NCBI GenBank assembly: GCA_002256025.1
Contig: NKIB01015001.1
Coordinates: 1 to 38,960, forward strand
Direction: 5' to 3'
Length of the DNA: 38,960 nucleotides
DNA from: Asterionella formosa
Taxonomy: Eukaryota
The notes below the pieces were generated by a model. That model was not told the DNA's origin. It was given only the letters and a program-made list of their open reading frames with translations, and did not search any database. The position numbers and the translations under genes are program-made. Of this stretch, positions 1 to 36,070 are shown one piece after another (the stretch's first letter is position 1; every line of letters begins with the position of its first letter).

Positions 1-916
1 ATTCTTTGTTGATCGCCTTGATCCACTCTTTCTTGTCTGGTCTTGCCATTGCTTCATCGTAGCTTGTTGGTAATCCTGGATCAGAAGCCAGACTTGCGTT
101 GTACACACAATTCACCTGTGTATTCTTCGTAATTTCCTTCATGTTATCCTCCTCAATAACACCAGGCATCTCAGTATCTCCTGAAATTTTTACAATTTTC
201 GTACTCATAGGATTGAACGATGAGTCCAATCTTCGCATTTCACGTGCCAACTTCGCTTGCTTAGACTGAGCACTTTCCGCACGTTTAGCCTTCACAATTG
301 GGGTATTGGTACCTGTATCTTCGTATTTCGTAGTACCATCTATCTTAGTTGATTGTTCAGTTTTCCTCCCCAATTCTTGCTTGTCATCATCTTCATCTTC
401 ATTATCGGACACTTCTTGAGGTTCGAACTCATCATAAAAATCGTCATGCAATTTTTCATTATCTTCTCGTACTGATATCTCCGTATCCTGTTGGTTGGTG
501 ACTGGTTTGAACATTTTCTCTAGTCCATCTGTTGGTACATTTGTTCCATGCCACTCACTCCACTTTACGTCACGTGTATTGACCACAGTATTTGTCTCAT
601 GATTATACATGCGATACGTATCTGGAGAGTGGTCATCTGAGTATCCCAAAAAGACACACTTGATGGAACGTGCATCTAATTTCTTGACACCTTCTCTTAT
701 AGTAACCCAACCAACACGTCCAAATTGCCTGTAGAGCTTGTAGGGCCGCCTTGCATTCGTTTCTCCATAGAACAAATCATCAGGACTCTTCTTAGTCACT
801 GAATTCACTGTACTGTTCGTCAATCTTGTCGCAGTATGTACAGCTTCTGCCCACAATAGCCCCTGATATTCATCTGTAAACTTCGCACTTAGCATCATAG
901 CGAGTGCTCTCTGACG
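1..916 (-). pseudogene. copia pol fragment: integrase C-terminal part, SH3-like domain and linker to reverse transcriptase (partial, continues beyond window)
   Basis: Manual translation from 916 gives RQRALAMMLSAKF...LWAEAVHTAT...KKLDARSIKCVFLGYSDDHSPDTYRMYN...DPGLPTSYDEAMARPDKKEWIKAINKE. It is joined to the upstream ORF by a frameshift near 916-920. Confidence 0.85.
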
Positions 917-1890
917 CCTGTAACAAAACCACGTTCCACGACACCGTTGTGCTGCAGAGTATGAGGTGCCGTAAATTCCATCTTGACACCTTGGTTTTCA
1001 CATACTTTCTTTAGTTGCTTGGAGTTCTCACCTGCGTCATCACATCGGACAAATTTAGGCTTATGTCCTGCACCTGCGCACACCTTTAAATTTCCAACAA
1101 GTTTCCACCCAAATAATTTCGATGTCTCACGAAGACATTTTTCCCCCACATGTCCAAGCATTTCATGCGCTTCATTTATTTCCACAATCACATCATTATT
1201 TTCGTTCGCGTTTCTTTCCTCGATCGTTTCACATATCGCTCTCGTCGTCCATTCATTCTCGTCTTCTTTAGTATCATAGTCGATGGATTGTTGTGTTGGC
1301 TTCTCGCTTTCTTGTTCAACCTCCAACACCGTTTCCTTTAGAATAGGCGTTCCTCGCACATGGTACATTGCACCAATTGTCGTCGTTTCATCACGTTTGC
1401 AGATCAAAAATCCGTTGTTGTTTTTGATCGTCATCTTATCATCGTCAAACATAACTTTATTTCCCTTGTCAATAATTCTCGAAATGCTGATAATGTTCTG
1501 CTTGAACTCCGGTGCATAGAGCACATTGGTGAGTTTCAACACTTTTCCTTTGTCTGTCGTCGTAAGGGTCATTTTGCCTGATACGGTCGCAACAATTGCT
1601 GCGCCATTTCCCACAAGAACAGTTTCACGCACTGCGCGCTTGTCCTCCATGATGCGCTCATCATTGCATATATGTACCGTAGCACCACTATCTAGGACTA
1701 GCCAATGGTCCTTATGCATGCATGAATGATTTACCTCTTCGTTGTACCTTGCCTCAATACACGTCACCATGAACATTCCTTGCATAGTGGTGTTGGCGTC
1801 TTCTCCCTTCTGTTTGATTGGTGCATTTTGTTGATTGTTGCACTCACTGGCATAGTGCCCAATCTTCTGGTAATTATAACACTTCCACAT
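895..1890 (-). pseudogene. copia pol fragment: second zinc knuckle, aspartic protease, pre-integrase, internally deleted integrase
   Basis: KCYNYQKIGHYASEC (degenerate knuckle), DSGATVH protease, NVLYAPEFKQNIISISRI. The zinc-finger KVC is joined directly to KPKFVRCD, so the first integrase core segment is missing. Frameshifts at both ends. Confidence 0.88.
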
Positions 1891-2704
1891 TCTTTCTCTT
1901 ATTTCGTTGCTCAGGAGTTAATTCTCTCTTTTCTGTAGTATTGCCCTTGCTTCGGCAATCAACTGCCTTGTGGCCATACTTGCCACATTTCCTGCAGTCT
2001 CCATTAAACTTGCTTTTTGAAAAGAAGGCCTGCTCGCCATTCTTACTCGTCTTGGTTTCGTCACGCATATACAAATCGTAATAGTCTCGTACATTCTTCT
2101 TGACCTCTTGGATCGTGAGCTCGGAGCTCGCGAGACCAAATTTTCCAACCACCAAACTCTTGTAGACTTCCGGTAGGTTGTTGATAACGTGGGCCACATT
2201 GGCACCATCCGAAATTGCGGAGCTCGTACGACTCAATCGTTCTCGAATTCTATCCAACTCCACAAACCAAATGTCGGGGTTCTCATTCTCGTTAATCGTG
2301 CATTTTGTCCACTGACCTGACAAGGCAATCACATTTGCCATATTACTTGACTCGTATATAGACACTAACTTGTCCCACGCTTCCTTCGCATTTCCATTGG
2401 GGAACTCTTCACTTCTGGCACCATTTACGTACCCAAATGGTCCGCTCTGACATGCCATAATCAAACTTGCATAGGCAACCGTATTATTTCGTTTCGTACG
2501 CTTCTCATCGTTGTTGCTCGGAACAATCTTCACTCCAGCAGCTGAATCTCTCTCACCTGCTGATACTTCATCTCCATTTAGGATTCCTTCAAAACTTTTG
2601 TAGCAGGCATAGGCCACAAACTTCGCTTTCCAAACGTGCCACTTGGCATCGGTACCATCAAATGTTGGCAACCGCACTCCTGACAATTCGTCATCAATTC
2701 CCAT
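1874..2704 (-). CDS. copia Gag (UBN2-like) with CCHC zinc knuckle; frameshifted at the second knuckle
   Basis: 276-aa ORF: LPTFDG..WHVWKAKF, AKEAWDKL, INNLPEVYKSLV, FNGDCRKCGKYGHKAVDC; ATG lies 36 nt downstream of the LTR. Confidence 0.9.
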   Translation of the reverse strand: MGIDDELSGVRLPTFDGTDAKWHVWKAKFVAYACYKSFEGILNGDEVSAGERDSAAGVKIVPSNNDEKRTKRNNTVAYASLIMACQSGPFGYVNGARSEEFPNGNAKEAWDKLVSIYESSNMANVIALSGQWTKCTINENENPDIWFVELDRIRERLSRTSSAISDGANVAHVINNLPEVYKSLVVGKFGLASSELTIQEVKKNVRDYYDLYMRDETKTSKNGEQAFFSKSKFNGDCRKCGKYGHKAVDCRSKGNTTEKRELTPEQRNKRKNVEVL

Positions 2705-4756: not shown

Positions 4757-5998
4757 ATGTTAGAAGAAACTAAAAGATTCGAGCTATCAGAAGAAGAGTT
4801 TCAACGAACACTTCAAGACGGCGACGCCGACGCCGAAACTCGCATTCCAATCATCAATCGCCTTGCCGAGGGCAAGAAAACGCCAACATGTGTCATTGTG
4901 GTGGGCATGGCTGGATCAGGCAAGGTTCGTCGTGCATCTGTGTGCAGTATTGATGCCGTCATGTCTGAAGACAGAGTAACACTCAATTATCGTGTTTTCG
5001 TCCAGACAACGTTACTGGCCCAACTCCAGCGGTCACTGGATGCGCCGGTATCAACGGATTTGGAGGCAACTTCATCAGCCGAGAGCGGAGAAGAAAAGAC
5101 GCTTAAGGTCGGATATTGTCTCAATTTGGATCCAGCGACTCTACTAGTTCCTTTCGGAGCTTCAATTGATATTCGTGATACGATTGATTACAAGGTACCG
5201 GTAGTTGCAAACTTCATGTTGATGTTGAGATTGTTTACCGGATACGACCATGCAACAGAATTCAATCTCTCACCTTAACCTTCATTGCATCATTCACAGC
5301 AAGTTATGATTCAGCACAAGCTAGGACCGAACGGAGCCATTATGACATGCCTCAATCTGTTTGCCACAAAATTCGATCAAGTCATGACCATCCTTGAAAA
5401 GCGCTCTGACGATTTGGACTACATCCTTGTGGATACTCCTGGCCAAATTGAAGCCTTCACCTGGTCCGCTAGTGGAACCATCATGGGAGAGGCACTCGCA
5501 TCTGCCTTCCCTACGGTCCTGGCGTTTGTTGTGGATTGTGTCCGATGTGCGTCGTCTCCCAATACCTTCATGAGCAATATGCTCTATGCTTGCTCCATGA
5601 TGTACCGAACAAGATTGCCTCTGGTGGTTGTCTTCAACAAGATTGATGTTGTTCCGCATGAATTTCTGTTGGAATGGATGAAAGATTATGACGTTTTTCA
5701 AGAAGCATTGGACGAGATGCTCGATGAATCGCAGGGATTCTATGGATCTCTTACAAGATCTCTCTCGTTGGTTTTAGATGAATTTTATCGGCAGTTGCAT
5801 TCCTGTGGGGTTTCGGCGGCGACAGGAGATGGAATGGCAGATTTTTGGAGGACAGTAGACATGGCAGCCAAAGATTTTGAAACAGACTATTTGGACGATT
5901 TAAAGAATCGTGTCGACGAACAGAATGCTAAGAAAAAAGCCATGGCGAAGGACAGTCTACGGCGATTGCAAAAGGATCTCTCTCAGGAGGAAAACTAA
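4757..5998 (+). CDS. GPN1: GPN-loop GTPase 1 (XAB1/Npa3); exons 4757-4924, 5006-5194, 5300-5998
   Basis: Walker A GMAGSGK|TT split by GT-AG intron 4925-5005; NLDPA; IDIRDTIDYK|QVM split by intron 5195-5299; LGPNGAIMTCLNLFATKF (GPN loop); DTPGQIEAFTWSASG; FMSNMLYACS; NKID. Confidence 0.95.
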
Positions 5999-14033: not shown

Positions 14034-14600
14034 TTAATCTACTTGATCATCATCCATCTCTAATATGATAGTCCTACCCATTGCTTTACTGACCACAACC
14101 TCATTCCAGTAATGTCTATTCATTTTTAGAAATAGGATTGCTTTCAACACAGCAGGTGATGTTGACTTTCTCACACAAGTAAGAATGTGCTTGGCAATGG
14201 AAAAGTGCCTTTCACAACTAACAGAAGTACCAAGGAGGAGGTCAAGACAAATGTAATTTTCATTGATGGACCTGACAGCATCATCATGCTTGCGCCATTT
14301 AATTCTCTTCTGAATCAAATCTGCATAGTTTTGTTGGTGTTCTGAAGAAACAGCATCATCTGAATTTTCAGGACATTCTTCAGAGGAATCATTACTCATA
14401 CCATCGGCAGGTACAGCATGTGTCTTCCTAAGTTTTGCAATTTTATTGCTTTCTTCAGCATTCAGCTCTTCACCTTTCATTACCTTCATGACAGCCAACT
14501 CAAACAGTTTGTCAGAAGTACCAAGGAGGAGGTCAAGACAAATATAATTTCTATTGTATGCCGATTTTTCTATTTTGGTGTTGCTTAATAGCCCAAGCAT
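14034..14600 (-). pseudogene. hAT transposase C-terminal (dimerisation domain) remnant
   Basis: TSVSCERHFSIAKHILTCVRKSTSPAVLKAILFLKMNRHYW resembles the hAT dimerisation signature (TS..CERLFS.A.....R); no upstream catalytic region. Confidence 0.75.
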
Positions 14601-18403: not shown

Positions 18404-19417
18404 CTAATCACTCCAATCAATGCGAATGGGACGACCAAGCAAGTTTTTTCCATTCAGAGTGGCACCTTTCTCGCAGGCCTCGGTATTCCAAAACTCCACA
18501 AAGCCTACACCCTTGAAATCACCAGTATCTTGATGATGAATCCAACGCACAGCCTTGACTTCAGCACCAACATTAGCAAAGAACTTTGTAATTCCATCAT
18601 CATCAATGTCGTAGCTCAAATTTCCAATGAAAAGTTTGTGACAATCTGCCGGTTTCTCGCTCATGGCCTTGATACCCGATCCACCTGCCTGGCCTCCTTT
18701 AGTTGCCGATTGCTTGGGAGGTGGCCATACGTCGCCAGGTCGCGATTCGGCAAAGTTGATCTTCACGTTTCTCCCCAACAATTGCTGTCCAGCCATGGCG
18801 ACAGCTTCTGCAGCACTTCTCGAATTGTCCATTTCGATAAATGCCGACCCGTAAAATTTTCCAGTTTCTTTATCTGTGATCCATTTGACGTGCGTAATTT
18901 TCCCAGGAAGAAATGCTCCCAGCGATGTTTCGTCAACTGTAAATGGCAAGTTACCGAGAAAGAGACGCGTGATTCCCTGAGGATTGCCTTTGCAAGGTTG
19001 GTTCTTGGTACCAGACGATTCGCTGTTTTCAACTATTTCTTTCTTGGTTTCCTCAGTATGCTGAGCACTAGTTAGGGTTTCATCGTCGCTCCCATTTTCA
19101 GTTTTAATTTTTTTGATTTGTACTTCCTGTTCCCTTTCGACAGATTTGCGTTTCACTTTCTTCTCCTTTCTTTCCTTGATCAGTGAAACCGTTCCTTCTG
19201 AATCAATCTTGAGAGCCCCTAGCTCTTCAAGACCTTGTACAGTCTTCTTGAACTGCTTTTTGGCAGCCTTGTCGTCCTTATCAAATTGGAGGGAGAGCAA
19301 AACGAGTTTCCGGAGCTTTTTGACCAGCAGAGAGCCAGATTTCGATCCTTCTTCAGAGCTCCCCTTGAGTGTTGACAGGATAGCCTCCTTCCAGTCAAGC
19401 TGTTTTTCCTTTCCCAT
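18404..19417 (-). CDS. two-RRM RNA-binding protein, nucleolin/Nsr1-like
   Basis: RLFLGNL..KFYGSAFIEM and KLFIGNL..FKGVGFVEF (RNP2/RNP1 twice), LLGRPIRIDWS, K/E-rich N-terminus; first ATG at 19417. Confidence 0.9.
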   Translation of the reverse strand: MGKEKQLDWKEAILSTLKGSSEEGSKSGSLLVKKLRKLVLLSLQFDKDDKAAKKQFKKTVQGLEELGALKIDSEGTVSLIKERKEKKVKRKSVEREQEVQIKKIKTENGSDDETLTSAQHTEETKKEIVENSESSGTKNQPCKGNPQGITRLFLGNLPFTVDETSLGAFLPGKITHVKWITDKETGKFYGSAFIEMDNSRSAAEAVAMAGQQLLGRNVKINFAESRPGDVWPPPKQSATKGGQAGGSGIKAMSEKPADCHKLFIGNLSYDIDDDGITKFFANVGAEVKAVRWIHHQDTGDFKGVGFVEFWNTEACEKGATLNGKNLLGRPIRIDWSD

Positions 19418-19569
19418 TGTTGCAATCACCGAGGCTATAGGCAGAAATCAAAATTGAAACCTTCTGATTAAGGAAGTGTTGGCTGTGCACAAAGGAAGGA
19501 GTCAAATGAATATTCTTGTTTGTCTCATCTAGTCTACTGGTGTTTCCCAGTAGATTGAGTCAACGTGTG

Positions 19570-19965
19570 TACCGGCACGGAATTTATCCGTCCCATAGCA
19601 CTACCGGAACCACGTACCAGGTACATGCAACAACTACGTATAGACGACAAGCAAAGAGCCGCCCGATGAAAATTACATCTTGCACCATTTTCATTCATGT
19701 CGAGATCATGGTAGTGAATGGCGGTGCTTTATGATCGTTTTAGTCTGGCATATGTTCGTGCCTACAACGACCGTTGGCGGAAGCAGTTGCTCTAAACGAG
19801 AAATTTAGCTTCGTGGTGTTTTTCTTTACCACAACCTCCACTTGCTTACCGGTACCGGCACTGGTAGCTAGTACGCATTCCACAGAGGATTCAAACTACC
19901 GGTACATATTACTGTAGGTAAATTATTCCAGGGGAGGAGGCATGATGATTACTCGGAGTACCGTA
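19570..19965. repeat. TACCGG/TACCWGG motif cluster in divergent intergenic region
   Basis: GTACCAGGTAC 19614, TACCGGTACCGGCACTGGTA 19847, TACCGGTAC 19897. Confidence 0.7.
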
Positions 19966-20045
19966 GTCAAGTCGACTCATTCTGGTGATCTGTTCGTCGC
20001 TCATTTTGTGGTACTTGTTGACTGTGACCGCGTGCTTCATGGGTC

Positions 20046-21653
20046 ATGTCTGTTGCCCTCATCGGAAGCTCTGGGGGAGGTGCGGCGACGCTAGGACACA
20101 CAGATCCAGGTCAGCTGCTGCAAACGATCCACAAAGAACTGCGAAAGATCGACGGTGCCGAAGGAATCAAAATCGCACTTTTTGTCTCGTTGCACGGCGG
20201 GAAGGGTCTGGACACATCGAATGACGAGGTGGATACCGCTACATTGTACTCAGTGCCACTATCGGAAGAGCCAAATGAGCAGTGCCACGTTCAAGTTTTG
20301 AAAACAGGAACCCTCAGAGAAGTGAACGAAGCAATAAAGGGATTGGATGCTGATATTGCACAGGCCATCAAGGACAAGAAAATCCAAGGAATAATTTGCA
20401 TCTCTTGTCATGTTGATCTTCATTCCAACACGCTCAAGACTGCAGCATCCATGCAGATTCCTGTTACTGGAAGTGGAGGAACATCACTATCAGCGGCCAC
20501 CACGAAGTTTGGTGTCATGTTAGTTGGTAATGCCGGAGGGTCCGTAGCAACAACAAGCTATACTCGAGCAGTTTCTTATACACATGCTCTTGCTACAACT
20601 TGGTCAAGAGTTTACAGACCATTTAATTCTTCTTTTACCACACCGCAGTGGAGGTCAGTCTTGAACGCGTGTCTGCCTGCATTCTGGGGTGTCACTCTGC
20701 TTTGTCGAGTGATAGAGATGTGTTTGGAATATTCGCCACCACAACTAGATCTGACAGCGCAACGCCATATTCTTGAGATAGTAAGATCAAATGTGCTACC
20801 CATCGTGTGCTGTGTTGTTATGGCGAGCTCAACGTCTCCTCAGCATGGCAGTACGGTTGTGATTGCATCCATCATTGCTGGTATTATGTGCGCAAATTCT
20901 GTTATTGGTGGTCTGGTGGCTGGTTGGCTTGTATCATTGTTCATTGGGAGGACATTGTATGCTTGCATTTGTCTAAGAATCCCGGCAACAATGACTAACT
21001 TAATCGCAGGCGGTGGCGTTGGAGTGGGAGTGGCCATGGTGATGGCACCATTTATACAATTTCTCCCATTCATTACACTTTCATTACGAGGAGCTATACA
21101 CAAGTCCATGAATGGACAGGTGCCTGGGCTGGGATTTTTGATTGGTTGCCTTTTTTGCTATGGTAGTAAGGTTGGGTATTACCATGAGATTGGGTTGCCA
21201 ATAATACTCCTGGAAATGGAACAGGGACAAGCCAGCCTTCTTGGAACCATCGACGAATGCACACTTGTCCTAGTTTCAGCTGGCATTTGCATCGGAAACC
21301 TCCTTCTTCCAAAAAACTTAGATTCCTCAGATTTGGCGCTGTGTACGCGTGGCCTCCAAATCAATTTACTTTTTGGGGATTTCATTGAAGCTGCATATCC
21401 CTTCATGGAGAGGAGCCCAATCATCAATTTCGCTGGGTATCTTGCCAGTGGCATATCAACAGAACTCCTGACTGGAACAAACACCATTGATGTGCTTAGC
21501 ATGGCGTACTTACCATTGCCTGTGAGCATTTTGCTAGCCAAGGATTGGACACGAGTATTACTTGCCTATTTGGCCGCCTTTATTGTTGCCTTCACTGGAA
21601 CTCTGGTTAATAATGTGGTATCGCCACAAAATATGATCAAAAAGGGAAATTGA
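20046..21653 (+). CDS. PTS EIIC-like multi-pass membrane protein with N-terminal soluble GSSGG domain
   Basis: Intronless 535-aa ORF. About 200 aa soluble (VALIGSSGGG, VTGSGGTS, GSVATTSYTRAVS) then many hydrophobic helices with GGLVAGWL, GYYHEIGLPIILLEME and FGDFIEAAYPF, which resembles the EIIC GI.E.AIPF substrate-binding motif. The family call is from recalled similarity to bacterial 'PTS sugar transporter' proteins. Confidence 0.7.
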   Translation: MSVALIGSSGGGAATLGHTDPGQLLQTIHKELRKIDGAEGIKIALFVSLHGGKGLDTSNDEVDTATLYSVPLSEEPNEQCHVQVLKTGTLREVNEAIKGLDADIAQAIKDKKIQGIICISCHVDLHSNTLKTAASMQIPVTGSGGTSLSAATTKFGVMLVGNAGGSVATTSYTRAVSYTHALATTWSRVYRPFNSSFTTPQWRSVLNACLPAFWGVTLLCRVIEMCLEYSPPQLDLTAQRHILEIVRSNVLPIVCCVVMASSTSPQHGSTVVIASIIAGIMCANSVIGGLVAGWLVSLFIGRTLYACICLRIPATMTNLIAGGGVGVGVAMVMAPFIQFLPFITLSLRGAIHKSMNGQVPGLGFLIGCLFCYGSKVGYYHEIGLPIILLEMEQGQASLLGTIDECTLVLVSAGICIGNLLLPKNLDSSDLALCTRGLQINLLFGDFIEAAYPFMERSPIINFAGYLASGISTELLTGTNTIDVLSMAYLPLPVSILLAKDWTRVLLAYLAAFIVAFTGTLVNNVVSPQNMIKKGN

Positions 21654-22493
21654 TTGCATGTTGACAAGGGGTGTCAATGGCATGCCTTCAATTTTGGCTT
21701 GTACTCCCAAAGTCGAACTTTGTGATAAAGGTTGCAAATTCAGTGCTGGAGCAAATGTGCAAGGTTGGTAAGTTTTTTAATATAACAAGGAAAGCTGGAC
21801 CTCAAAAAATGTTCCTGACAGGTGTAGACTTGGTATTATCTTTAAGAGACTAGTATGTTAAATTATTTGCTTCACAATTCATTGATTTTACATCTGCCCA
21901 ATTTTGAACTCACAATCATGATTCCCACTCTATCCTGCCTGCCATTGCTTGATTTGAGCTTGCAACAGGGACCTTTTGACTTTCTCTTGATGCCATTGTC
22001 TGCTGTGTGATTGGTGAGAATAACAGTGAAACACTGCATGTGGAATGTAGATACTATTTGTCCAATTTGTGATTTGATTGTTTCCATTATCTGATTTGAT
22101 TGCTTCTGTCATTGTTTATATAGCAAGTAACAAATACACAGCATGTACTTGTATCATTCATTAGGTATTATCGCCCAAAGGTTGCTGTTGACACGAAATT
22201 GCGAAAATTGGATATTTTCAGCACGTTCACTCTATTGAGCAAGCTGATCACCTTTTCCATCTTATACAGGTATGAGAATATTCCTTGGCTAGAAAACTAA
22301 TTTAGTATCCCCAAAACTTTATTCAATAGGGCTACGACGTAATTGCGCTTTCTCTTGTGCAACATAATAAAGAGATAGATTCACTGAAGGAAACAATCAT
22401 CAATTAGAAATTCCTGGCACGCCCGAATTATTAGTAAAAAGTTTAAATGCAAACACAGCAATCACTCATCACCTGTCACAATACCAATCATCA

Positions 22494-22740
22494 TGACCTG
22501 GAAAGCACCTTGACAAAGCAACAAAGCTTTGCCTCGAAAGAAGTTTCCCCCTGAAGAGCTGGTCAGCATTCAGAAAATTTGTCTTAATGTGATTATGGAG
22601 CTAGAACAAGCTACTAGTAAGAAGGCTAACAACGGTGAAAAAATGCCTTACGGTGCTATTTCTGGGACAGTATAAGCTAAGCAACGCATTAAACTTTGTA
22701 TATCTGTTAACCAAGTGAAGAATGAATTAAGGTTGCGGCC
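22494..22740 (+). pseudogene. possible N-terminal remnant of pogo-like (DDE_1) transposase
   Basis: Translates ...ELEQATSKKANNGEKMPYGAISGTV*..., similar to the NG..PYG N-terminus I recall for diatom pogo-like transposases; contains stops. Confidence 0.4.
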
Positions 22741-23899
22741 CCGCAGTTACACATCACGAGGTCTGTTTTTTTCCAAAATAATTTTATGATGTACTTCAAT
22801 CCACGCACACAGTACGTGCAACGAAATAAAAAAGTTAATGGTAAAATTAGCTTTCACCAATACGACCACTTTGCATATGCTTAGATACAGTCATGGGTCG
22901 ACTTAGGGGTATGATCTATATACAGATATGGTAAGGGTAAGCCTTTAGCATTCAGCTTGATAATCGCTCCACAACAAGCATGCAAGTCGCAGCTTCGACT
23001 TTTGAAATAGATCTCAGGACAAGGATATAGCCATCGCAAATGTCATTGGCATCGCTCGTTGTTGTTGTTAATTGTTGTTTCATGATGGTGACCGGTAAGA
23101 ATACAATTAAATAGTAAATACAGTAACAACTAGCTAGAATACAATAATATGCTGTTATTTTTTCTGTAGACATAAAATATTTGGGGGTATTGTGCCAGAT
23201 GTACGAAGGGGGGTACAGGTATCTGGGGGGATACGAGACACCAGGTTTTACGGTATTCAAATGGACACTCGAATCATGAGAATTCATAGTAGGAAACTCC
23301 CTGTTCCACGCCGTTTTTACAACCCTAGCGATATTTTCTCCGAACTAGGGTTAAGCCGGGGCCGCTACCTTAAAACAAAGTGCTAAGCTAGAAGTTTGTC
23401 CTTAATTCAACCATCAACTGCAACCAGCCATGTCTACATTGACACCTGATCTTTGTAGCCCTACTAAACAACTTCTCTTGAACTCTGATGGCATTTTCGC
23501 CTTTATAGTTCCCAGCATGAGTGAATGACAACAATGAAGGTGTGAGTGAGCATTTTGATAATCAGCTAACAATGCGCACTTCAGCATATGAAAATGGAGA
23601 CAATGGTAGTATGCTCCTTACCTGGGGAATTTTGAAAGCAAAGAGAAAATAGACAATTACAAACACAAAGATAACAAAAAAGGAGGACATGAGTATTACA
23701 ATTGTTGCTAGATGGCCCAAAGGTGCCAACAGCTATAAGCAACAAATCCCAGACTGGTGTTCCTTAGTATGGCTACTGGCAGGTTGGAGACAGTAGTGAG
23801 CAAATCGGTTATTTCAAAATGGTCATAACAAAAGCAAAACGAAAATTAATCGCATTTAAAGCAGATCACAGGCAAGAGCTCGTCTGTAAAAAACAACAT

Positions 23900-33952: not shown

Positions 33953-36070
33953 ATGGCTAAGAAGAGGAAGAACACCAAGAAAAAGTCCTCCAACGGAACA
34001 GCAACCGGAGATAACGACGCGGAAACCACTCTAGAAGAAAACATGGAAATGGAAAAGGACGAACATGTAGAGGTGGATTGCATGGACCCCACAGCAAGCG
34101 ATACCGGCAATCTTGAAATTGTTGCTGCGGAGGACTCTGCAGCCGACGATCCACCCCCTGATTCTTTTCCAGACGACGAATCACAAGATGATAAACCATC
34201 TGAGGCCATTCCTGATGTTGGTGGATTTACTTCAGATGAAAAGGACCTTGAGGAGTCGGTTGTGTGCAACGAACCAGCAACAAAGGTGGACGACAACACA
34301 GACGTCACTGGTCAACCTGACAACGATGCAGCAACCGCTGCAAAATTCGCAGAGGAAGAAGGAACTTGCACTGAAACGTTCAAAGAAGTGATGGAAACAG
34401 CTACCTTACTTTCTGAAGATGGACTTATTGCGTCAGTCGTCGTGCTGGAGGAAAAGGACTCCCTTGTGGTACCCAACGAAGCCGAAGCCTTTGAAGGAGA
34501 AGTGGAGGGCACTCCTACGGCATCCAATGACGCAGAGGGAGAAGTTGTATCTTTTAAAGGAGAAGTTGACGACTCTGCTGTGGCACTCCATGAAGTACAC
34601 GAAGAAGCAGCAGCTTCTAGGGGAGAAGAGGAGGACTCTGCTCTTGCACACCATGAAGCAGAGAGAGAAGTTGCTTCTTTGAAAGGAGAAGGAGAAGACT
34701 CTGCTGTGGCACTCAATGAAATAAACGAAGAAGCAGCAGATTCTAAGGCAGAAGAGGAGGACTCGGCTGTGACACCCAATGAAGCAGACGATCAAGCAGC
34801 AACTGTAAAGGGAGAAGAGGAGGACTCTGCTGTGGCACCCAATGAAGCAGAAGAAGAATCACCAACTGTAAAAGGAGAAGAGGAGGTCTCTGCGGTGATA
34901 CCCAATGAAGCAGACGAGGAAGCAGCAGCTGAAAAAGGAGGAGAGGCAGACTCTGCTGCTGTCCCCAATGAAGCAGACGACGGAGCAGCAGCTTCCACTG
35001 AAGAAGAGGTAGACTCTGCTGCTGTACCCATTGAAGCATACGAAGTAGCAGCAGCTTCCACTGGAGAAGAGGTAGACTCTGCTGCTGTCCCCAAGGAAGC
35101 AGACGAAGGAGCAGCAACTTCCACTGGAGAAGAGGAGGACTATGTTATGGCACCCAATGAAGCATACGAAGAAGCATCAGCTATAAAGGAAGACGTGGAC
35201 TCTGTTGTGGCACTCAATGAAGCTGACGACGAAGCAGCAGCTGTAAATGGAGAAGAGGAGGACTCTGATGCGACACCCAATGAAGCAAACAAAGAAGCAG
35301 CAGCTGTAAAGGGAGAAGAGATAGACTCTGCTTCTACGACCAATGAAGCAGACGAAGGGGCAGCAACTTCCACTGGAGGAGAGGAGGATTCTATTGTGGC
35401 ACCCAATGCAGCAGACGAAGAAGCAGCAGCTGTAAAGGGAGACGAAGACTCTGCTCTGGCACCCAATGAAACAGATGAAGAATCAGTATCTGTAAAGGGA
35501 GAAGGGGGAGACTCTGCTGCTGTCCCCAATGAAGCAGACATAGAATCATCAACTGGAAAGGGAGAAGAGGTAGACTCTGCTGCTGCCCCCAATGAAGTAG
35601 ACGAAGGAGCAGCAACTTCCACGGGAGAAGAAGAAGACCCTGCTGTGGCACTCAATGAAACGCAAGAAGGAGCAGCAGATTCTAAAGGAGAGGTGGAGGG
35701 CTCTGCTGCTTTCCTCAATGAAGCAGACGAAGGAGCAGCAGCTGTAAAGGGAGACGAGGACTCTGCTGTGGCACCCAATGAAGCAGAAGAGGAATCTGTT
35801 GTGTCGTTTGCCGAGGTAACTGCTGTGGAGGCAGTACCTGCAGACTCTGCTGTTGAGACCCCTGTTGTGCCGGCTACTGCATCAGAAAAGGTTATTTTTT
35901 ACACGTTGGAAGAACTGAAGGCAGGTGTTGCTGGAGTCGACTATGCAAAGCGTGAACAATACCTCCCGGAGAATGTGTTTCAAGACTTGTTTGGTATGAA
36001 TAATGATCAATTCAAGAAGCTGCCATCATGGAAGCGCATTGCTGCCAAAAAGAAGGTAGGATTGTTTTGA
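33953..36070 (+). CDS. acidic tandem-repeat protein with C-terminal villin headpiece domain
   Basis: 705-aa ORF; C-terminus VDYAKREQYLPENVFQDLFGMNNDQFKKLPSWKRIAAKKKVGLF is a villin headpiece (F..F..F, LP.WK, KK.GLF); basic N-terminus MAKKRKNTKKK. Confidence 0.9.
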   Translation: MAKKRKNTKKKSSNGTATGDNDAETTLEENMEMEKDEHVEVDCMDPTASDTGNLEIVAAEDSAADDPPPDSFPDDESQDDKPSEAIPDVGGFTSDEKDLEESVVCNEPATKVDDNTDVTGQPDNDAATAAKFAEEEGTCTETFKEVMETATLLSEDGLIASVVVLEEKDSLVVPNEAEAFEGEVEGTPTASNDAEGEVVSFKGEVDDSAVALHEVHEEAAASRGEEEDSALAHHEAEREVASLKGEGEDSAVALNEINEEAADSKAEEEDSAVTPNEADDQAATVKGEEEDSAVAPNEAEEESPTVKGEEEVSAVIPNEADEEAAAEKGGEADSAAVPNEADDGAAASTEEEVDSAAVPIEAYEVAAASTGEEVDSAAVPKEADEGAATSTGEEEDYVMAPNEAYEEASAIKEDVDSVVALNEADDEAAAVNGEEEDSDATPNEANKEAAAVKGEEIDSASTTNEADEGAATSTGGEEDSIVAPNAADEEAAAVKGDEDSALAPNETDEESVSVKGEGGDSAAVPNEADIESSTGKGEEVDSAAAPNEVDEGAATSTGEEEDPAVALNETQEGAADSKGEVEGSAAFLNEADEGAAAVKGDEDSAVAPNEAEEESVVSFAEVTAVEAVPADSAVETPVVPATASEKVIFYTLEELKAGVAGVDYAKREQYLPENVFQDLFGMNNDQFKKLPSWKRIAAKKKVGLF
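34523..35796 (+). repeat. coding minisatellite, about 20 copies of a 63-bp (21-aa) unit, three of them 60 bp
   Basis: Consensus near PNEADEEAAAVKGEEEDSAVA; AATGAAGCA at 34778 and 34841 (63 bp apart). Confidence 0.95.

Follow-up and report, generated by a model that had tools for sequence, protein, structure and literature searches.

The diatom Asterionella formosa has a genuine nuclear gene, present in polyA RNA, for a protein of 535 residues that is predicted to consist of a soluble N-terminal domain and a membrane domain with the EIIC fold of the PEP:sugar phosphotransferase system (PTS). To our knowledge, the sugar-uptake membrane protein of the PTS has been regarded as absent from eukaryotes; an expressed and conserved gene with this fold, on a branch that includes diatoms, a chlorarachniophyte, a diplonemid and a choanoflagellate, represents a counterexample for the membrane component. 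Nevertheless, the diatom protein has the fold, but in the fragmented assembly no other component that defines a working PEP-dependent PTS was found, and a carrier for which the usual partners were not found, and which has an extra domain instead, probably works by a different rule. The features referred to below are the following; positions are those of the window, i.e., the whole stretch of 38,960 nucleotides that was analysed.

18404-19417, reverse strand: divergent eukaryotic RRM gene by which the ORF is tied to a eukaryotic contig (RRM_1 match, E 7.5e-25)
19972-21851, entered as forward, the strand not being shown by the contigs: span of the polyA RNA contigs, with no splice joint
20046-21653, forward strand: intronless gene of a 535-residue two-domain membrane protein, N-terminal domain plus EIIC-fold carrier (ORF, model, RNA)
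20046-20627, forward strand: predicted soluble Rossmann/flavodoxin-like domain, residues 1-194, its fold score (Z about 9) tied among many folds (fold searches, conservation)
20064-20078, forward strand: glycine loop 1 (G7-G11), after strand 1 (model, conservation)
20469-20486, forward strand: glycine loop 2 (G142-S147), aligned with the STGGT motif of E. coli PurH (weak-scoring alignment, conservation)
20538-20567, forward strand: glycine loop 3 to R174, with residues 167-168 touching the other protomer in the dimer model (conservation, dimer model)
20640-21629, forward strand: membrane domain with the predicted Glc-Fru-Lac EIIC fold, residues 199-528, the scaffold 207-338 being the predicted dimer interface (fold searches, dimer model)
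21180-21185, forward strand: Y379-H380, aligned with PtsG H211-H212 and, for H380, with MtlA H195 (profile alignments, conservation)
21252-21254, forward strand: D403, aligned with MtlA E218 (profile alignment, conservation)
21375-21401, forward strand: G444-P452 motif, with E448 aligned with MtlA E257 and the glutamate of the TreB GVTE motif (profile alignment, conservation)

The window is eukaryotic in content, with genes for RRM, ABC1 kinase, GPN-type GTPase and villin headpiece proteins, and copia genes. An earlier note on this DNA, made from the letters alone, had described an intact ORF with three motifs between an RRM gene and transposon debris. The ORF is indeed uninterrupted by stops, and the motifs were located at residues 7-11 (GSSGG), 142-147 (GSGGTS) and 443-453 (FGDFIEAAYPF). 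Of the two flanks, the RRM gene stands as described, while the debris downstream was seen only as high-copy DNA at 22700-23500, a repeat with a depth in the thousands in the DNA runs and many loose ends. Elsewhere the window holds copia-type gag and partial pol frames at 895-2704 (reverse strand), a weak hAT match (E 0.004) at 14034-14600, a GPN-loop GTPase gene, apparently interrupted by introns, at 4757-5998 (forward), and a 705-residue acidic repeat protein with a C-terminal villin headpiece domain at 33953-36070 (forward). Upstream of the ORF, the in-frame stretch runs into a stop after six codons without an ATG, and thus the protein has no longer N-terminus or presequence. The gene is single copy in the A. 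formosa assembly, which is fragmented (68 Mb in 15,436 contigs).

Contigs of polyA RNA from both RNA runs examined span the ORF with no splice joint: three overlapping pieces cover 19972-21767 in run X7, and a single contig covers 20098-21851 in run X11. X11 comes from the same sample as the best DNA run and only X7 is independent RNA evidence; X7 and the DNA run X10 belong to other studies. In all, four of the 24 listed runs were compared, and since X2 barely covers the gene, a gap there is uninformative. The possibility that the gene is a bacterial contaminant or a chimeric join, against which the earlier note had also warned, has in its favour the intronless structure, the bacterial type of fold and one X11 contig with 255 unlike letters before position 20371. 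Against it, two overlapping X10 contigs (19209-19882 and 19810-20147) between them contain the starts of the RRM gene and of the ORF, polyA RNA covers the ORF, and its GC and GC3 contents of 0.465 and 0.431 lie within the range of the seven other ORFs of the window (0.442-0.480 and 0.430-0.546). Moreover, among named sequences its closest relatives come from the diatoms Grammatophora oceanica and Fragilaria crotonensis, the identity to diatom relatives being 53-59% as against 31-32% to named bacteria. The runs that contain the gene are from freshwater samples, so a freshwater diatom is the most likely host. Contamination is thus largely refuted already, and we regard its chances as negligible. 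The RRM gene appears as a separate RNA piece, and the spacer between it and the ORF is nearly bare of RNA.

The AlphaFold model, built from 107 homologs (pLDDT 94, pTM 0.91), agrees with the proposal of a soluble domain (residues 1 to about 190) followed by a multi-helix membrane domain (about 200-528). In a fold search against 48,161 chains, the top four matches were EIICs aligned over residues 198-535, i.e., PtsG (Z 17.5, rmsd 4.9 Å over 318 aligned residues), MalT (16.6), ChbC (15.9) and the V. cholerae IIC (15.8), the next unrelated chain scoring Z 9.2. With Foldseek the top six matches were again EIICs, the best with E 0.0016, and no row reached E 0.001. By structural comparison, the membrane part therefore carries the fold of the Glc-Fru-Lac superfamily, in line with the EIIC fold that the earlier note had supposed. 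At the level of sequence the likeness is faint: neither PF02378 nor the NCBIfam IIC models gave a match above cut-off for the query, no Pfam or NCBIfam family fits it, and neither the query nor the eukaryotic profile drew useful matches from Pfam, NCBIfam or PDB sequences; the bacterial member P0316 scored 24.2 against PF02378, whose cut-off is 30.7. Assignment to a single EIIC subfamily failed, since ChbC, FruA, MtlA, TreB and PtsG swap rank by method.

Conservation was read from an alignment for which 160 of 305 full-length proteins were selected and 150 rows, near-copies included, were retained; by tree position these are 104 eukaryote-side and 46 bacterial-side rows. Y379, H380, G444 and E448 are invariant in all of them, and D403 and Y488 are present in 149. 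Y379-H380 fall on H211-H212 of PtsG in a profile alignment (E 8.6e-5) that is out of register at the glutamate, whereas H380, D403 and E448 fall on H195, E218 and E257 of MtlA in a low-scoring alignment with few gaps. In PtsG, H211, H212 and E298 bind glucose (PMC11393339, in part), and the motif glutamate of EIICs is described as essential in the accessible text of PMC12900739. These alignments indicate that the histidine and glutamate of the EIIC sugar site are kept in the diatom protein. The membrane domain has no basic column that is invariant on both sides of the tree, E390, D403 and E448 being invariant on both; K375 (73 of 104 rows) and R435 (94 of 104) are found on the eukaryote side and bacteria have neither.

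The diatom protein also models as a homodimer through its scaffold. Two copies of residues 1-500 gave a score of 0.62, with a pLDDT of 73, when the best control gave 0.00, and the runs agree in at least 90% of the contacts, which involve residues 207-338 together with residues 167-168 of the N-terminal domain. In the benchmark, 21 of 30 solved pairs from microbes and none of 23 single chains attained the mark used; for eukaryotes the figures were 17 of 29 and none of 30. This result may mirror the likeness of the protein to solved EIICs.

The N-terminal domain occupies the place that EIIB has in IIBC proteins, and in the alignment it is conserved to the same degree as the membrane domain, with 17 of 167 columns at 90% conservation against 24 of 287. 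Its invariant or nearly invariant positions are G10, G11, D56 (147 of the 150 rows), N94 (149), S120 (all 150), G142, G144, G145, S147, G165, S/T166 and R/K174, the last being the only basic column of the whole protein that is invariant on both sides of the tree. No cysteine or histidine column of this domain is common to both sides in the 150 rows; H18 is present in 68% of the eukaryote-side rows, and 45 of the 46 bacterial-side rows have glycine there. For this reason the candidate identification of the domain as an EIIB was rejected. Supposed likenesses of its loops to those of EIIB and of MurG/ALG14 were unsupported by comparison (MurG, E 0.48), Foldseek rows for a GT-B N-lobe were weak, and the Atlas gave no named match for the domain. 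Weak matches to Peripla_BP_4 were obtained with 12 of 50 members (best E 3e-6) and to the methylglyoxal synthase (MGS) family with five of 50. Among ten panel proteins, MgsA (25.7) and PurH (21.9) scored highest against the domain profile, and 40 shuffles scored at most 16.1; these MGS-like alignments cover 40-50 columns with probabilities of 2-20%, their Pfam scores are all below the cut-offs, and they are absent from the top 50 fold rows. A binding-protein lobe and an MGS-like phosphate-binding domain are thus the best candidates, as leads rather than assignments. Phosphate sites are typically built of glycine, serine and threonine loops plus one basic residue. Given that the three loops and R/K174 are of this kind, we infer that the N-terminal domain binds a phosphorylated ligand.

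As to the origin of the gene, the earlier note took it to be horizontally acquired. Kinship to bacteria was upheld; the gene is not a recent arrival in A. formosa but lies on one old protist branch. In an IQ-TREE phylogeny of 50 rows (LG+G4, quick search, SH-aLRT support only, uneven composition, root set by us, inner order not resolved), all 12 named eukaryotic rows lie on one side of branches with supports of 99 and 96 and all ten named bacteria on the other; a FastTree of 150 rows agrees with this split. The named eukaryotic members are diatoms, Phaeothamnion, Amorphochlora, Namystynia and Helgoeca, the last three of which we take to be a chlorarachniophyte, a diplonemid and a choanoflagellate, respectively. 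This distribution suggests one old transfer from a bacterium to a protist, followed by losses or by spread among protists. The Logan protein P0162 looks bacterial but carries the GDFVE and GGSVA motifs of the eukaryote side; of the rows outside the eukaryotic branch it lies closest, and it may point to the donor. P0027, a eukprot 'Skav' record from what is presumably a dinoflagellate dataset, shares 56% identity with the query and nests next to Fragilaria crotonensis; it would represent either diatom contamination of that dataset or a transfer from a diatom to the host, and was not counted as a separate lineage. A Seminavis protein had already been named 'phosphotransferase system component' automatically.

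When 1.84 billion representatives were searched by profile, 564 matched, including bacterial proteins with both domains, of about 520 residues and automatically named 'PTS sugar transporter' (WP_080030396.1, RYL97418.1); a profile of this bacterial family found 966 proteins. The fusion, which the earlier note had described in the eukaryotic gene, is by this comparison ancestral and belongs to a large unstudied bacterial family. Five members, P0222, P0188, P0178, P0208 and P0198, reach 729-1029 residues through long low-complexity loop insertions with no added Pfam domain, and in two loci (L024:334-1903 and L065:7992-9565) the carrier is split into two ORFs near its C-terminus by a frameshift or an assembly error. 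Among 5,426 E. coli genomes, three have the gene. Besides it, the family profile matched just FruA (E 5e-5) in an E. coli chromosome, and plasmid searches with three queries were empty.

Of 317 bacterial loci, the best 80 were analysed. A TIM barrel of 280 residues is encoded in 48 of them and, where there is at least 1 kb of room, directly follows the carrier in 42 of 65; the other 23 have no barrel after the carrier, which can hence occur by itself, as it does in the diatom. The barrel (L082:9615-10454 and at least 47 other loci), automatically named 'histidine biosynthesis protein', has invariant EPNHP, HxHK and AEGGI motifs, is a homolog of PDB 4ml9, an 'uncharacterized protein' (E 1e-118), and weakly matches hexulose-6-phosphate synthase, NanE and RPE. 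Also found among the best 80 loci were regulators of the GntR-UTRA (25) and DeoR (six) types, Cof HAD proteins (six) and, in only seven, nearby sugar kinases; two E. coli loci have the order carrier, barrel, Cof HAD and DeoR (WP_080030396-399). Among 232 neighbouring ORFs, one per cluster of the 799 called, there was no EIIB, HPr or EI and one EIIA, on the opposite strand; a tblastn search with nine E. coli queries over 837 kb of loci likewise gave no EIIB and the same single EIIA match. As these loci lack an EIIB, doing without a dedicated one looks like an ancestral trait and not like an adaptation of eukaryotes.

The earlier note had stated that the window has no PTS partners, and none was found in the whole assembly either. 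Searches for EI-N (PF05524) and HPr (PF00381) gave no candidates in the fragmented A. formosa assembly, with controls positive in seven of 14 genomes, and none of EIIB (PF02302, PF00367) or EIIA (PF00358, PF00359) was matched there; for each search the controls were positive in five to seven of the 14 genomes, introns were disregarded, and the Lac-type EIIA and Man-type EIIA and EIIB families were left out. Absence of partners is not proven, since the assembly is fragmented and the search disregards introns. The TIM barrel of the bacterial loci was likewise not found in this assembly with two single-protein queries, run with no positive control.

Taken together, these data lead us to propose, tentatively and with a little under even confidence, that this nuclear gene, derived from an old bacterium-to-protist transfer, encodes a PTS-independent, homodimeric elevator carrier of the EIIC fold, which is gated by an N-terminal domain that binds phosphate, and which moves a polyol or a neutral or amino sugar and frees this cargo unmodified. 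The protein would dimerise through its scaffold helices, as modelled, and the cargo would be held in the transport domain by H380, D403, E448 and Y488, judging from the alignments with PtsG and MtlA; an acidic and aromatic site argues for a neutral or amino cargo, while K375 and R435 of the eukaryote side could bind an anion, which counts against it. At the position of EIIB, the cytosolic N-terminal domain would bind a phosphorylated small molecule through the three glycine loops, S120 and R/K174 and, when loaded, might gate or pace the elevator, replacing the accelerating role of phospho-EIIB. Without phospho-EIIB the turnover of an EIIC is 100-1000 times slower (PMC13543919, in part), so that a bare facilitator needs a substitute, which we only infer here. 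The cargo would then leave unmodified and be phosphorylated by separate kinases; transport free of phosphorylation through PTS permeases is on record in the accessible portion of PMC10989795. As the protein has no presequence, it would be expected in the plasma membrane or an endomembrane, with the N-terminal domain in the cytosol.

The bacterial loci pull in another direction. Their phosphosugar-type barrel, Cof HAD and DeoR or GntR-UTRA regulators, with a kinase near only seven of 80, suggest a phosphorylated product and favour a protein that phosphorylates its own cargo. Under this alternative, a one-protein group translocator, the N-terminal domain would be a phosphotransferase that modifies the cargo on release, with ATP, pyrophosphate, polyphosphate or a sugar phosphate as its small donor, and would stand in for the whole relay from EI through HPr and EIIA to EIIB. 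The cassette of carrier and barrel, extended by Cof HAD and DeoR in E. coli, and the near lack of PTS components in the 837 kb are consistent with this, the invariant D56, N94, S120 and R/K174 with the three loops look catalytic, and in the dimer model loop 167-168 extends to the partner protomer. Matches to PFK (E 0.003, one of 50 members), to DAGK (two of 50) and, with Foldseek, to PPi-PFK (E 0.065) are weak, and no kinase family was matched significantly; no kinase is among the top 50 fold rows, one ribokinase-fold row (Z 7.7) appearing in the second fold search. A single lobe is rarely enough for a kinase, and bacteria could use distant kinases or EIIBs. This alternative is unlikely in our view, although it has to be taken seriously; if true, eukaryotes would have their first case of PTS-type transport coupled to phosphorylation, at work in diatoms and other protists, and in bacteria the mechanism would be common though overlooked.

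A phosphosugar-type enzyme and a phosphatase with neither kinase nor EIIB would also be explained if the carrier imported an already phosphorylated sugar or polyol and its N-terminal domain bound the phosphate group or sensed the product. In L017 and L018 the carrier adjoins a class B acid phosphatase and a Cof HAD, and the eukaryote side has K375 and R435; nevertheless, the invariant site of the membrane domain is acidic or aromatic and has no basic residue common to both sides, and we consider such an importer improbable. Equally doubtful is a sensor, or transceptor, in which the EIIC fold would bind sugar and signal through the N-terminal domain with little net flux. The resemblance of this domain to periplasmic-binding or LacI lobes (Z about 9) and to Peripla_BP_4, and the slowness of unphosphorylated EIICs (PMC13543919, in part), speak for it, but in bacteria the neighbours of the gene, in small cassettes of catabolic appearance, are an enzyme and a dedicated regulator rather than signalling proteins, and no additional Pfam domain, signalling domains included, was found in 27 long or divergent members scanned. 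Finally, the bacterial proteins could be ordinary orphan EIICs for which other operons supply EIIB and EIIA, and in protists the copies would be relics or have another role. The named bacterial carriers are mostly from Bacillota and enterobacteria, groups that have a PTS, which would fit, as does, in two E. coli loci, a Man-family IIA/IIB operon that lies past yjbD and rluF, some 6 kb downstream; borrowing of a IIA within a family is on record (PMC13543919, in part). Yet the diatom gene is expressed, and the site residues and N-domain loops are invariant in the 104 eukaryote-side rows when no partner was found in the host, which leaves this last explanation a slim chance.

The gene provides a naturally occurring case in which to ask if, and by what means, an EIIC elevator can run in the absence of phospho-EIIB, and it points to a candidate path by which algae could take up dissolved sugars or polyols. 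It also brings to light a large bacterial family together with the TIM barrel that accompanies it, to both of which automatic annotation has given wrong names. In the open literature, searched by titles and the beginnings of abstracts, no paper on this family was found, subscription papers and the supplements of diatom gene-transfer catalogues lying outside the scope; the accessible parts of PMC12145455, PMC10305011 and PMC6048161 hold nothing on it.

Compared with the EIICs of the Glc-Fru-Lac superfamily (PtsG 8qsr, MalT 6bvg, ChbC 3qnq, MtlA, FruA), the diatom protein shares the predicted fold (Z 15.8-17.5), the modelled scaffold dimer and the putative sugar-site histidine and glutamate. On the other hand, its structural identity to them is 8-14%, it has no Pfam or NCBIfam EIIC match, the GITE/GIHE motif is replaced by GDFIE, and it is fused to a 190-residue domain unlike a recognisable EIIB in a eukaryotic host where the relay was not found. 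The bacterial 'PTS sugar transporter' family is closer, with both domains and the invariant residues over the full length at 31-32% identity; it differs in that its genes usually come with the TIM barrel and a GntR or DeoR regulator, and D445, K375 and R435 are characters of the eukaryote side. With EIIBs of the Fru/Mtl/Lac (PF02302) and Glc (PF00367) types, the N-terminal domain has in common a cytosolic alpha/beta fold at the N-terminus, as in IIBC, and glycine-rich loops after strands, but it is about twice the size, has no shared Cys or His, and its profile does not match ChbB or the IIB-bearing FruA, MtlA and PtsG. The MGS-like domains (methylglyoxal synthase and the IMP cyclohydrolase of PurH) and the type I periplasmic-binding-protein lobe are the nearest leads for it, by top profile scores and by Z about 9, respectively, though over 40-50 columns only and below the Pfam cut-offs. 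A precedent for the proposed transport comes from the passage of xylose through GalABC and of galactose through the glucose PTS, in which the sugar crosses an EIIC unphosphorylated (PMC10989795, in part); such facilitated diffusion is a side activity of a complete PTS, whereas the bacterial and diatom family seems to be built without an EIIB.
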